Shown here in pieces: positions 23,814-43,940 of a stretch of DNA of 64,000 nucleotides. Both the position numbers and the translations under genes were made by a program. The notes under the pieces were generated by a model. The model saw only the letters and a list, made by a program, of their open reading frames with translations. It made no database searches and was not told the DNA's origin. Each line of letters starts with the position of its first letter. Position 1 is the first letter of the stretch. The stretch covers positions 422,473-486,472 of the forward strand of contig JASBSB010000007.1 of the NCBI GenBank assembly GCA_030149205.1. The letters run 5' to 3'. Origin of the DNA: Candidatus Heimdallarchaeota archaeon. GTDB taxonomy: Archaea; Asgardarchaeota; Heimdallarchaeia; Heimdallarchaeales; Kariarchaeaceae.

Positions 23814-26800
23814 ATGAAAGATAACACCCCAACTAAAGTAATTTTTATTTCTCTGCTGTTCATGGCATTGCTAACAACAAATGTGTTTGCAAATGCCAGT
23901 CTCAGTACGAATATTACAGATCAAGTTAAGGTGTCTATGCAACAGGGAATGCATTACTACACCTACGACTCAAATAAAGTGGTCATATTTTATGACTATA
24001 AGGAGTCGTTGGCTGTTAGCACAGCAAAATCCTTGACTAGCTCTTTGAATCTCTTTACGCCGAATGCGATAGGAATTCCAATTGGTAGTCTTGATGTAAT
24101 AGAACCTATTCTGATGAAAAACAACTACAAAGCCGCAATTTTAGTTTTTCCCTCTTCCCCTTCGGGGATGAAAATTACCTCCCTTAGTGGATCGGTAAGT
24201 GAATACAGCTGGAAGACGGTCGCAAAATTCATAGAAAATAAAAGAGATCAGTTCAAAGGAACCAACTTTATTTTTGCTATGGGTAACACAATGCAGCTTG
24301 TCTCTCATATCTCAAATGTAGAGCGAATCTATGCTTCAAACGAGGAAGCTGTAGAGTCAGAACATATCTATGTTTACACGTTGTGGACTTTGGCAGATAT
24401 CTTTGAATCCGATGATGATGCACAATACAGGGCATTAGGTAAGGATCTAAGAAAAGCTACCCTCAAATATTTTGCTAACAATTTCAACAGGATTGCAGCC
24501 AGTAGCATATCTCCTCAGAATCCAATGGGGAAGGAATCAGATGCAACTGTTGAGGCTCGTAAAAAGAAGTTTTTTGATGACCATCAACCGGTGGTAGTAA
24601 AACAGGCTAGACCAGGATATATAATTGACCCCAAAACAAATCGAGAGGTGGATCCCGCAACAGGAAAACCCACCACTGATTATGGGATCGATATCTTTCC
24701 ACAAAACACTAGCACAGTAACAGATTTTATTTTGCAGCTCTTGCCGATTGGCAGTGGCTTAAGGGGGCCAGTAGGGGGAATAGTTGACAATCTTCTCTCT
24801 TATCTTTTCAATGAAATTGGAGGGGCCATCGGGCTTTCTAATGACACAGTCACACAGATATTCGATGTGATTACTCAGATCCCAGATCTTATTGCATCAT
24901 TCTCAAACCCCTCTGCAAGTGCCATAAAGGCATTGGTGGAAAAACTAAAACCTATGCTTCCAATTGGTGAAGAATTTTATCCATACATAAATCTCTTTAT
25001 CGATGGTCTCTTTCTCTTAAGAGGGAGCAAGGATGATATTGTTAATTTTATTCAACAGGCAGTCAGTCTATTAATCCCTGATTCGCTCTCAATTGGTTCA
25101 ATTAGTGTCAAGGCTCTTCTAAGCCAACTTACGACATTAGGAGCATCAGTTTTTGATAAAATCCAACAGGGAGGAAATGTATTAGATATCATATTTAGTG
25201 TTCTAAACGAACAGATTGTGGCTAATCTAACTGCTACAGTGATGGGAAATGGGACCGTATTTGGGTTATCTGCCCCAGAACTCACTAAGTTTATAAACAA
25301 GACAACAACAACAATTAATTTTGTTATCCAATACTTGTCATCAAAAAGTCTAAAAGACCTTGCATTTGAATATGGTGACAAATTGTTACGTTTTGCCTTC
25401 TCAGAATTTGGGTTGAGTGAAAACACCTCTGAAACCATTATTCTATCGTTAACCACCGTTTTAACTGCGATGGGTGTGATTAATGATCCAGATGTAAATC
25501 TTGAGAATCAAATAACTGAGATTCTTAAGCGTGTAACAAATTTGAATATTGACCTAATTAAAGAAAAGGCTAAGGATATACTTAAAGTAATCAGTGATGC
25601 GTCTGAGGGTAAATTTACCTCAATTTCAAATTTAAACACCAATCTTCAGCCTATTCTTGATACATTAGGTATTTCTACCAATATCAAAAACAGTCTTCGC
25701 GATTTGATTGAAATAATTGCTACTATCTCCAGCTCAAATCTCTCGTTTAGCTCTGTGAAGAAAGTTTCTTTAATGATCGCAGATTTTGCAACAAGCTTGG
25801 GATTAAACTCCCAATACAAAACCTTTGTAGGGCAGTTATTTGAGTCATTAACCAGGATCATTAACTTTGTCAAAAACCCACCAAAGCTTTCAGACCTCCT
25901 TAATCTCAATTTTGGAGGAGTCATTGACATTTATCATGAAATTAAAAACCTGTTTGATCTGGTTGTAAACTTTGTTAAAGGTGTTTTGCCGCCTGCTCCA
26001 ACCACTACCAATTCTGTATCACCTCAGGCAACCGGTCTGAGTAATTTAGCAAACAATCTCTTTGCAAACGCTTCAGAAATAATTGGTGTTGTATTTCAAG
26101 TTGTAAACTCTGTTCAGGGCAATTCTATGGAAGGCGTTATGCTCGCCCTTCTTCAAAGTTCAACTCAAATCTTGGGGAGCTTCCTCCCAGTTGATAATAT
26201 TCAACCAATTGTTGAGGTAACAAAGTATCTCTTCAGCACAATTGCTGGATTGAACACCACCATCTCAGTTGACCAGTTGATCAGTCAGATTCTTCCCCTA
26301 TTTCCATCTAGCTTACAATCAGGGGTCAAAACAGTCCTTGATATTATCTTTAGTATTAAGGATGTATTCACTAATGGACTTCAGACGTTAATAAACAGGT
26401 TATTGGAATGGATTTCTGGGAAGATATTTGGGCTAATTGATCAGCTACTTGGAGCGCTGAACCCCTCAGTTGATTCTTCAGGCATATCGATAAATTTTGA
26501 TGTGCCAATAGGGATCGGCAGTTTCTCACTGTTTACCATGAAGTTTCGGCTAGGTTTATCCTTTGGCTTTGAATTTGATAACGACGCCTTTGCCACCTTT
26601 ATTTCCGATATCATCTTTCGAGGGGCAAAGGTATTACAAGGGTTAGATGTTGGAGGTGTCTTCAAAAAACTTTTCAGCTTTATGTCTATCACACCAATCT
26701 TTGAAGCTGGATTTGAGTTAAGCACCTTTGGTTCTGGATCTCAAAGCTTCCTGAACTACATGCTAGCAGCACTTGGAGTTGAGCTTAACTTTTCTGGGGA

Positions 26801-42290: not shown

Positions 42291-43940
42291 ATGAGCTTTA
42301 GACGTTCTCGAACAATCTTGATTTTTAGTCTATTAATTTTTAGTCTAATTCAAGTCACAGCTGTAAAATCTTTACCTGGGTCTACTCCGGATATTCAGCC
42401 TCAGGTACAAGTTGAGACAGTTAAAATCATGGCATACAATATCCTTGAGTCAGGAAAACACATTGAATGGAAAGAAGTAGTTAAACAAGCAAATCCAGAC
42501 ATCTTGATTGCAGTTGAGACTGGTGGGTGGAATGGTCCAACCGATCCTACACTTCGAACCATAAAAGATGAGTTTAACACCTATTTCTCCTCAGAAAAGC
42601 CTTATGAGGTCTGGGCGACAAATAACAATCCATCAACAACTGCTGGGGAGGCAATCTTCAGCAGGTACCCCATTTTAAATGGGACAACCATAGTTGATGT
42701 TACATTAGACAATGGTGGAATTAAGAAGGCACATAATCCGTTTATGGATGCAGTGGTGAATATCAGCGGGATAGTAACACATGTCTTCGGGGTACATCTT
42801 AAATGTTGTTCCAGTACATCTGGTCTTGAACAGGTCAACAGAGAGCAAGACACAGAAGGAATATTGAACTATATGGACAACCTCGGTAATGTTCCAATAA
42901 TCTATGCTGGAGATTTGAATTCCTTTTCTCCAGTTGATGTCAAACTCTGGCATGAAGACACAGGTCTTGGCTATGGGCCTATGGAGATGATGTTAAACAG
43001 CTCATCACCTTATGCTTCAAAAACACATACCTTTTACGATATGTATCGGGAGCTCAACCCATATGATAGGGGATACACCTATGTTGACAAGTTTTATAAT
43101 AGCAGAATAGATTACATTGTCCTCAATCAGTACTTTAAAGATATGCTCGTGAATTCCACGGTCATAGATGATGCATTGGCTCAGAAAGGTTCAGATCATT
43201 TTCCACTGGATGGGTTCCTCAATCTACAGCCAACTCTTAAGGATCTTCGCCCACCAGCTCGGATATATAACACCACAGGGGTACTCGGAACCAATTCGTT
43301 TAATCTAACGTGGGATCCAAGTCCTGCAGTTGATTTTGTTGGTTATCGGGTCTATAGAAACTCAACGATGATTAAGACCACAACGGTGGCGCATTTTAAT
43401 GATACAGGGTTACCTAGTAACACCCTTTATGTTTATCAGGTCTCAGCATATGACAACTCCAGTAATGAGGGATTAAAGTCTCATTCGCTCTATGTCAATA
43501 CATCTTACGGGATACTTACTTCACCTGGGGCTCCATTGAATGTGACAATAACAGTCGGTGAGAATCAGTTGAAGGTTAGGTGGAATCCACCAAATTCAGA
43601 TGGTGGGACTTCAGTAATAAAGTACAATGTGTACAGAACCACGAACCCCTCTTTTAAATACATACTCTGGGCATCGACTTCTGGCTTTTCCTATACTGAT
43701 ACTCGAACCATCTCAAATTTTGTCTATTACTACAAAGTAAAGGCAGTAAATTTCGTTGGAGAGGGTAATTTTTCAGCAGGTGTGTCTGGAAGACCACTTA
43801 CACCAAATTCTACGGCTCCCTCTTCAACCCCAACCCCAACACAAACTGTAGGAACATCCCCAATTCAGTTCACTGTGACCTTTACTAGTGTGTTTATCAC
43901 TATATTTGTTTTGAAAAAGCAGAAGAAAACGAGAATTTAG
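42291..43940 (+). CDS. Cell-surface-anchored endonuclease/exonuclease/phosphatase (EEP) family protein with two FN3 domains
   Basis: Signal peptide. EEP hallmarks: N-terminal 'VKIMAYNILESG' (catalytic N..E) and C-terminal 'GSDHFPLDGFL' (SDH). Two ~90-aa FN3 modules (LTWDPSPAVDFVGYRVYRN...; LKVRWNPPNSDGGTSVIKYNVYRT...). Thr/Pro linker plus TM plus 'KKQKKTRI'. Confidence 0.7.
   Translation: MSFRRSRTILIFSLLIFSLIQVTAVKSLPGSTPDIQPQVQVETVKIMAYNILESGKHIEWKEVVKQANPDILIAVETGGWNGPTDPTLRTIKDEFNTYFSSEKPYEVWATNNNPSTTAGEAIFSRYPILNGTTIVDVTLDNGGIKKAHNPFMDAVVNISGIVTHVFGVHLKCCSSTSGLEQVNREQDTEGILNYMDNLGNVPIIYAGDLNSFSPVDVKLWHEDTGLGYGPMEMMLNSSSPYASKTHTFYDMYRELNPYDRGYTYVDKFYNSRIDYIVLNQYFKDMLVNSTVIDDALAQKGSDHFPLDGFLNLQPTLKDLRPPARIYNTTGVLGTNSFNLTWDPSPAVDFVGYRVYRNSTMIKTTTVAHFNDTGLPSNTLYVYQVSAYDNSSNEGLKSHSLYVNTSYGILTSPGAPLNVTITVGENQLKVRWNPPNSDGGTSVIKYNVYRTTNPSFKYILWASTSGFSYTDTRTISNFVYYYKVKAVNFVGEGNFSAGVSGRPLTPNSTAPSSTPTPTQTVGTSPIQFTVTFTSVFITIFVLKKQKKTRI

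Follow-up and report, generated by a model that had tools for sequence, protein, structure and literature searches.

The locus examined here, positions 23814–43940 of a 64,000-nucleotide stretch of DNA from Candidatus Heimdallarchaeota archaeon (the whole stretch being termed the window), raises the question of whether four consecutive plus-strand genes for large surface proteins, P1 to P4, encode one apparatus, as a sequence-only reading had proposed, or a smaller functional unit with unrelated neighbors. That reading gave the products of the four open reading frames (ORFs) as 2208, 2910, 832 and 549 amino acids (aa), with coordinates that proved exact, except that P2 more likely starts at the ATG at 30450.

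23814–30440, plus strand: P1, 2208 aa, TSP3-repeat giant surface protein, gene 1 of the conserved pair
30450–39173, plus strand: P2, 2907 aa from ATG 30450, multi-β-propeller FG-GAP giant, gene 2 of the pair
39294–41792, plus strand: P3, 832 aa, NosD/PbH1 parallel β-helix, immunoglobulin-like domain, Thr/Pro stalk, transmembrane (TM) helix; neighbor only
42291–43940, plus strand: P4, 549 aa, endonuclease/exonuclease/phosphatase (EEP) phosphoesterase, two fn3 domains, Thr/Pro stalk, TM helix; neighbor only

Counted from a GTG, the P2 ORF spans 30441–39173 (2910 aa), and a gene caller gives 2907 aa. A Logan contig of 64 kb and an NCBI contig of 633 kb, from independent assemblies, encode the same proteins, so that the ORFs are not chimeras or other assembly artefacts, a possibility that the sequence-only reading had left to be checked. 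The conserved unit is P1 and P2 only; across 71 related loci only these two of the four genes travel together. On balance it is probable that this pair is a pan-Asgard, translationally coupled operon for a 1:1, Ca2+-dependent envelope or adhesion complex, and as such a candidate for a component of the cell coat.

The distribution of the pair was established with a P2 profile scanned over one genome per GTDB species, which returned 62 loci from Asgard genomes and metagenome-assembled genomes (MAGs). When the non-repeat N-terminal 1180 aa of P1 were compared with the P2 loci by tblastn, a P1 orthologue (19–50% identity) was found upstream and on the same strand in all 60 loci having at least 3 kb of upstream DNA, and each of the ten loci without a P1 match stops at a contig end. 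The loci span Heimdall-, Hod-, Kari-, Njord-, Hermod-, Odin-, Loki- and Thorarchaeia, and P1 orthologues of 2026–2315 aa lie directly 5′ of the P2 orthologues in all Asgard classes. Full-length P2 homologues were likewise recovered from every class (106 proteins, all with E below 1e-128), roughly 1,700–4,900 aa and mostly 2,600–3,200 aa in length, the sources including two strains of L. ossiferum and Odin, Thor, Njord, Hod and Heimdall MAGs. Seven of these homologues were inspected on their contigs, and in all seven a TSP3 protein of 2078–2247 aa ends 0–20 nt before P2, the FG-GAP partner measuring 2629–3153 aa in the inspected Heimdall/Kari, Odin, Loki (L. ossiferum), Thor and Heimdall bin6 loci. 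Each complete genome gives a single match, lengths are constant, and the flanks are unrelated between lineages, with ETF, OsmC, FTHFS, PIG-L, LSM/L37e and others found downstream. The best reading is that the P1–P2 operon is ancestral to, and has been retained across, the Asgard archaea.

Several loci depart from this plan or extend it. Four MAGs labelled Bathyarchaeota or Nitrososphaerota (L042, UBA233; L067, BA_19; L047; L051) carry a P2 homologue only 28–36% identical to the Njord, Thor and Heimdall copies, and three of the four also carry the P1 orthologue, the locus of L067 ending at a contig edge; these MAGs are either mislabelled or deep-branching, which bears on the age of the pair. 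L068 is the sole locus with an atypical gene order, a P2 fragment (102–3026) lying ~8 kb upstream of a match resembling the P1 N-domain (11049–12848) on the same strand, possibly as a paralogue or through rearrangement. A lineage-specific expansion is seen in Heimdall bin6 (CP070695; L010/L061, 19459–29462) and in a Hermod locus (L020), where P2 is followed by an overlapping gene for a 925-aa PPC-domain protein and then by a second FG-GAP paralogue of ~3144 aa with Lectin_C and LTD domains. An added C-terminal Beta_helix/NosD module is present in some P2 orthologues of 3276–3368 aa, namely P0020, P0021, P0025 and P0027 and that of L042 (5561–15667), and BNR_2 is also recorded in the first four.

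The junction between the two genes, which had been read as abutting and translationally coupled, has the order AGAGGAG(30430)-TTAA-GTGATTAAA-ATG(30450) and contains one further element.

30430–30436, plus strand: AGAGGAG resembling a Shine-Dalgarno motif, within the final codons of P1; ATG 30450 follows after 13 nt

This spacing makes ATG 30450, and not GTG 30441, the likely start of P2. A GGAGG-type motif in the final codons of P1 or just past its stop recurs in 54 of 55 orthologous loci, with the P2 start codon no more than ~20 nt beyond it, and the motif even shapes the protein: P1 orthologues in Thor and Loki lineages (L009, L024–L029, L035–L041, L060, L069) have Lys/Ser/Thr-rich cytoplasmic tails of 60–80 aa that end in a conserved KKGGA, because the GGAGG that serves P2 as ribosome-binding site lies within the P1 coding sequence and supplies the codons of the terminal Gly-Gly. 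P1 and P2 are thus, as judged from the motif and its position, translationally coupled. In six Thorarchaeia MAGs (L015, L053, L048, L046, L049, L037) the intervening stop codon has been lost and the two are fused into a single ORF of 4716–4901 aa, and fused representatives are also present in protein databases (P0029, P0061, P0076, P0086). At the fusion junction, the P1 TM helix is followed by a Lys/Ser-rich cytoplasmic loop of ~55 aa and then by the retained P2 signal segment; both membrane segments being kept, the topology is preserved and both ectodomains would remain outside the cell. Subunits that act jointly and in fixed stoichiometry classically show this combination of coupled translation and recurrent fusion, from which we infer that P1 and P2 form a complex.

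The anatomy of P1 can be divided as follows.

23814–23894, plus strand: signal peptide, aa 1–27 (...NVFA|NA), from hydropathy, kept in orthologues
23961–24563, plus strand: α/β domain, aa ~50–250, caspase/CHAT-like or flavodoxin-like fold without the catalytic Cys
24711–26480, plus strand: all-helical repeat region, aa ~300–890, from a model mostly of low confidence
26481–27293, plus strand: conserved amphipathic β domain, aa ~890–1160, ten strands of 9–20 residues
27372–29633, plus strand: TSP3 Ca2+-binding repeat region, aa 1187–1940, 18 strict and 22 relaxed motifs
29634–30335, plus strand: membrane-proximal C-terminal domain, aa 1941–2174, no family match
30336–30437, plus strand: Gly-rich TM helix (aa 2175–2193) and cytoplasmic tail GIFKNPFKKRS

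The repeat region is recognized by the Pfam family TSP3_bac (4.4e-34), and its DxDxDG motifs number 18 under a strict and 22 under a relaxed definition, fewer than the ~26 repeats first counted. On either side of it little is familiar: the C-terminal 268 aa have no Pfam match, and the N-terminal ~1150 aa have no sequence match in Pfam, NCBIfam or PDB. Among 1.84 billion proteins, this N-region forms 75 representative clusters, nearly all of them P1-sized or fragments thereof, and it is, by these sequence comparisons, a new domain family restricted to these organisms. An AlphaFold2 model of the N-region, calculated from an alignment of 19 database sequences, resolves three parts, one of them the long helical-repeat region at aa ~300–890, the profile of which matches only designed helical repeats in PDB and no Pfam family. 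Small proteins of ~250–350 aa (P0186, P0188, P0190, P0192–P0196) match only aa ~10–215 of P1 and could be either free-standing homologues of the α/β head or products of fragmented genes. Matches of the N-region to the henipavirus F protein in PDB (phmmer E~0.06) vanish with a 36-sequence profile and were rejected as chance, and with them the idea of a viral fusion protein.

The amphipathic β domain is the most conserved part of this new family, and it includes strongly hydrophobic segments at aa ~1055–1148 that the first reading did not mention. Each of its ten strands has one fully hydrophobic face, a pattern invariant across Asgards, and the domain models like an outer-membrane-type barrel, with a predicted local distance difference test score (pLDDT) of 45–70 in the region. 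In sequence it bears the signature of a membrane- or lipid-facing β-sheet, and the hydrophobic face may be buried against P2 or may face lipid. If it faces lipid, P1–P2 could be a membrane-active or lipid-handling machine, in which the domain would insert as a β-barrel into the cell's own membrane or that of a partner, or form a hydrophobic sheet that binds lipid, with the propellers and TSP3 repeats serving as a targeting scaffold, and the roles could be pore formation, transfer of lipids or hydrophobic substrates, or membrane tethering or fusion. We regard such a machine as unlikely, since the model confidence in the β region is low, the amphipathic pattern also fits a buried sandwich sheet or a P1–P2 interface, and no lipid-transfer or outer-membrane protein family of Pfam or NCBIfam is matched. 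Foldseek aligns P1 with MTP, vitellogenin and ApoB at E 5.7e-4 to 4.7e-2, yet with template-modelling (TM) scores of only 0.06–0.09, and neither Vitellogenin_N nor DUF1943 is matched by Pfam in 36 P1 orthologues. The likeness of P1 to these proteins and to outer-membrane barrels such as autotransporter and two-partner secretion translocators, FadL and LptD is architectural only, and the host has no outer membrane. To our knowledge, no β-barrel membrane protein has been established in Archaea, which also counts against the idea. That the domain truly faces lipid, as a barrel or lipid-binding sheet on the outer side of Asgard cells by which the P1–P2 complex would engage membranes or lipids, whether of cellular protrusions or of bacterial partners, is distinctly unlikely; if true, it would be the first membrane module of β-barrel type from Archaea, and a device for membrane contact or exchange common to all Asgards, bearing directly on the interaction between the ancestor of eukaryotes and its symbiont.

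In P2, the following features were distinguished.

30717–31535, plus strand: N-terminal propeller, aa ~90–362, the most conserved segment, with GGYLYDNEIH and YVFEQRH
34857–35999, plus strand: BNR/sialidase-like region with two Asp-box motifs
39096–39170, plus strand: C-terminal TM helix and RRKKKN tail, from hydropathy

The FG-GAP propeller assigned by the sequence-only reading is borne out by Pfam (FG-GAP_3, 2.5e-34; FG-GAP, 2.3e-16), which also reports Beta-prop_BBS7 and BBS2_Mid, and a model of aa 1–1200 (pLDDT 78; predicted TM score, pTM, 0.76) is all-β and multi-propeller. Integrin-type Ca2+ loops of the pattern D.[DN].[DN]G..[DE] are spread along the chain, 13 in all. As for the additional BNR propeller, two SxDxGxxW Asp-boxes are present (aa 1530 and 1783), both with a Trp invariant in orthologues, and PF13088 is recorded for some of these, whereas BNR_2 itself reaches only E=0.12 in P2, below the gathering score. 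The first propeller contains dozens of Asp, Glu, His and Tyr residues invariant across Asgards, and such extreme conservation fits a fixed binding partner or ligand. The C-terminal TM helix with a KKRK-type tail is kept in 40 of the 50 orthologues examined. Foldseek returns generic triple-propeller proteins (DDB1, CPSF160, SF3B3) for the P2 model at TM scores of 0.1–0.2, which are uninformative on homology. Faint Pfam matches to eukaryotic BBSome/KICSTOR-type propellers (Beta-prop_BBS7, BBS2_Mid, Itfg2, FAM234A/B) recur in P2 orthologues; a relationship with the BBSome was rejected, the matches probably being best read as a shared FG-GAP-like propeller character.

The resemblance of the pair to the integrin α/β heterodimer deserves comparison in detail. 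In both systems, two type-I membrane proteins occur together, each having a large ectodomain, a single C-terminal TM helix and a short cytoplasmic tail; P2, like integrin α, is based on FG-GAP propellers with DxDxDG Ca2+ loops, and the coupling and fusion of the genes imply a P1–P2 heteromer. However, P2 has many propellers instead of one, shows no Thigh/Calf leg (Integrin_alpha2) in Pfam and ends in RRKKKN without GFFKR, whereas the motif GIFKNPFKK is found in the tail of P1; and P1 contains no βI/vWA domain with its metal ion-dependent adhesion site, no PSI and no EGF, its α/β head appearing caspase-like or CheY-like, not vWA. P1 and P2 are also ~2–3 times larger than the integrin chains. 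The pair is hence not an integrin, and no evidence of common descent was found beyond the widespread FG-GAP repeat. A tail of the form G[FI]FKNPFKK(RS) is conserved in P1 of Kari and Heimdall lineages (window 30393–30437; L002, L011, L012, L013, L021); it recalls the integrin-α GFFKR and the NPF/NPxF motifs, as a resemblance only, and is absent in Loki and Thor.

Neither does P1 qualify as a thrombospondin or COMP, as it matches only the bacterial-type TSP3_bac and has neither the lectin-like C-terminal domain of thrombospondins nor the EGF/TSR modules. The best named profile matches of its repeat region are instead to Myxococcus proteins with Ca2+-binding TSP3 arrays, namely CglD (NCBIfam NF033765, "adventurous gliding motility lipoprotein"; 9.2e-58) and MtsD and MtsC (NF047638/9, "cell-cell cohesion" proteins; 3e-15 and 1e-9). 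P1 is not CglD, the match covering repeats only and scoring 195.9 bits against a cut-off of 400, and the Mts-family score is 55 bits against a cut-off of 800; unlike the Myxococcus adhesins, P1 has a different N-region, a TM anchor in place of a lipoprotein or MYXO-CTERM anchor, and P2 as a partner. The pair belongs to a kind of protein already known, namely giant, anchored prokaryotic envelope or adhesion proteins, with a new N-terminal family in P1 and a conserved amphipathic β module.

Both proteins bear extracellular-type traits, with signal peptides, positive-inside tails, 1.3–3.4 N-X-S/T sequons per 100 aa, ~0.1% Cys and Asp-rich Ca2+ motifs. In the proposed mechanism, P1 and P2 would be exported by Sec and each anchored in the single membrane by the C-terminal helix and its short basic cytoplasmic tail, side by side, and they are probably N-glycosylated and Ca2+-loaded. 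The putative 1:1 assembly, of ~5100 residues, would project from the membrane, P1 contributing the α/β head, a helical repeat arm, the amphipathic β sheet or barrel, ~20 Ca2+-binding TSP3 repeats and the membrane-proximal domain, and P2 a chain of FG-GAP/VCBS-type β-propellers with Ca2+ loops and the BNR-like module. It may be a core Ca2+-dependent component of the non-crystalline coat ("complex surface densities"), with a scaffold and a contact or adhesion role. The universality of the pair, its single match per complete genome, its constant size and its invariant residues accord better with a core component of the envelope than with an adhesin that is variable, fast-evolving and specific to a partner.

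Cryo-electron tomography of every cultured Asgard archaeon shows an unusual envelope, in which the single membrane bears "complex surface proteins" in place of a classical S-layer. L. ossiferum, P. syntrophicum and a Heimdallarchaeon have been described as lacking an ordered S-layer and as having amorphous or complex surface proteins of unassigned identity, with no S-layer proteins detected in P. syntrophicum (PMC9834061; PMC11284389; 10.1101/2025.11.06.686947), and cell crawling of a Loki archaeon needs regulated adhesion (10.1101/2025.11.30.690169). Asgard envelope structures have repeatedly been invoked for cell–cell contact, syntrophy and crawling, and for part of these structures the pair offers a concrete and, from its sequence features, strong molecular candidate. 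As a single-copy, coupled pair that occurs throughout the Asgard classes, in some cases as a fusion, it can be tested in cultured Asgards. The combination had been taken not to be a described system, and no published description of the pair was found in the searchable literature, the full-text coverage of which is incomplete and does not include the final paper of Liu et al. 2021. Méheust 2022 mentions further families of Asgard proteins as "integrin-like" (fam15271, located beside tubulin/FtsZ) and refers to Liu 2021 for eukaryotic signature proteins (ESPs) with integrin repeats; the Liu 2021 preprint contains no integrin-repeat ESP term.

Another view makes P1 and P2 the subunit pair of an S-layer of the canonical, paracrystalline kind, one forming the lattice and the other the stalk, as in SlaA/SlaB. 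The generic features agree with archaeal S-layer proteins, both products being giant, Cys-poor, sequon-rich, signal peptide-bearing and C-terminally anchored, with adjacent genes like the two-component SlaA/SlaB, and an anchored S-layer protein of 2667 aa in Pyrobaculum (PySLP) provides a precedent, very large and probably N-glycosylated as well (10.64898/2026.08.21.746120). Yet PySLP and SlaA/SlaB, which assemble into ordered lattices, are made of immunoglobulin-like domains or coiled coils, whereas P1 and P2 comprise TSP3, propeller, helical and amphipathic β domains and the imaged Asgard cells are mostly without a lattice, none being seen on cultured Loki and Heimdall cells (PMC9834061; 10.1101/2025.11.06.686947). 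In addition, the S-layer of a Hodarchaeales isolate has been assigned to a different, tetrameric protein (10.1101/2025.02.26.640444), and P1 and P2 each have an anchor, which SlaA does not. A canonical S-layer is accordingly very unlikely.

Giant repeat proteins often deliver toxins, and one could thus regard P1 and P2 as arms of a polymorphic-toxin or contact-dependent competition system, the more so since the supplementary table of L. ossiferum contains the annotations arCOG07561 and arCOG10338, the label "secreted multidomain protein, often C-terminal toxin domain" being placed on its TSP3_bac, FG-GAP_3 and PQQ proteins. Polymorphic toxins, however, end in variable toxin tips, whereas the C-termini of P1 and P2 are conserved TM helices with basic tails, and a cleavable hypervariable C-terminal domain with a cognate immunity gene was seen in no lineage. 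One-to-one orthology with a constant architecture speaks against such a system too, as do the lack of a conserved small immunity-like ORF downstream of the pair in the inspected loci and the lack of any PADLOC defense-system or toxin Pfam match, and we consider it barely credible.

Several points weigh against the envelope-complex proposal itself. Function is deduced from kinds of domain found in surface proteins generally, and adjacency and fusion argue for joint function without proving a stable heteromer. The model of the P1 N-region is of low confidence (mean pLDDT 59.6, pTM 0.31). The regular S-layer reported for the Hodarchaeales isolate, formed as noted by another protein, means that the pair cannot be the sole coat component everywhere. 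The text of the MK-D1 glycoproteome paper makes no mention of the P1 and P2 proteins, and in the supplementary tables searched there was no expression evidence for the L. ossiferum orthologue NEF87_004126.

The remaining two genes bear on whether the island is a unit. As had been claimed, all four products appear to be surface proteins that are secreted, anchored at the C-terminus and equipped with repeat domains of adhesion type. Each begins with a hydrophobic stretch resembling a signal peptide and ends in one hydrophobic helix followed by a basic tail (KKRS in P1, RRKKKN in P2, KKHRIK in P3, KKQKKTRI in P4), as judged from hydropathy only. Of the Thr/Pro or Gly-rich linkers attributed to each, those of the Thr/Pro kind are confined to P3 and P4. 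An archaeosortase substrate (PGF-CTERM and relatives) was ruled out for all four, which have only the TM helix and basic tail, with no sorting or PGF motif and no match to an NCBIfam CTERM domain at E≤0.1. Profile searches recovered TSP3, FG-GAP, β-helix, Exo_endo_phos and fn3 from Pfam, the last three confirming the β-helix of P3 (NosD, 1.5e-39; Beta_helix, 1.4e-37) and the EEP hydrolase with two FN3 domains of P4 (Exo_endo_phos, 1.3e-8; two fn3, 2.4e-10).

It was from this content that all four genes had been taken to form one cell–cell or cell–partner attachment apparatus with a metazoan-like extracellular-matrix repertoire. Co-directionality and the common surface topology agree with that view, and the Beta_helix/NosD modules on some P2 orthologues show that P3-like modules can be combined with P2 and are shuffled among Asgard surface proteins. 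In the synteny comparison, however, only P1 and P2 co-occur: P3 and P4 stand beside the pair in no other locus, P4 has no match in any related locus and P3 only a few weak β-helix matches there. Among JGI metagenome contigs, too, no close relatives of either were found, P4 giving no match and P3 weak partial ones. AT-rich gaps of 120 bp before P3 and 498 bp before P4, each with TATA-like elements, and T6 runs following P3 further separate the genes, and P3 and P4 probably each have their own promoter, to judge from these elements. The matching profiles (TSP3_bac; CglD, MtsC and MtsD of Myxococcus; FG-GAP_3/VCBS-like; NosD; Exo_endo_phos) are bacterial or generic, and integrin- and thrombospondin-specific domains are absent, the eukaryote-type character first assigned being overstated. 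A single four-gene apparatus is thus highly improbable. The tempting picture of a metazoan matrix toolkit gives way to generic prokaryotic surface modules, and P3 and P4 are best seen as separate surface proteins particular to this lineage, encoded downstream by chance as passengers beside the conserved pair. The gap between them (41793–42290, 498 bp, non-coding) has 28% GC and two T6 runs, and no convincing ORF, tRNA or Rfam match was found in it.

Upstream of P1, the TATA-like element placed at ~23755 is present.

23755–23762, plus strand: TATA-like TTTTAAAT, ~58 nt upstream of the P1 start, putative promoter element

A GGTG at 23803 is a possible ribosome-binding site for P1. The genes of the island do not form a compositional island (GC 0.35–0.41 against 0.383 for the window), and no tRNA or Rfam match was found within the window. 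The closest named homologues come from Kariarchaeaceae and Heimdallarchaeota MAGs, and the neighboring genes are ordinary archaeal or Asgard ones (aIF2alpha, TFIIB, AcnX, an Arf/Ras/Roc GTPase, a leucine-rich-repeat (LRR) protein, GHMP kinase and threonine synthase), among them the Ras-like GTPase and LRR protein pointed out earlier. Directly downstream, at window positions 45716–49113 on the minus strand, lie genes for the LRR protein (556 aa), TFIIB and the Arf/Ras/Roc-type small GTPase. In a Thor locus (L009), an LRR protein is also encoded beside the pair, immediately 5′ of P1 and on the other strand, possibly by coincidence.

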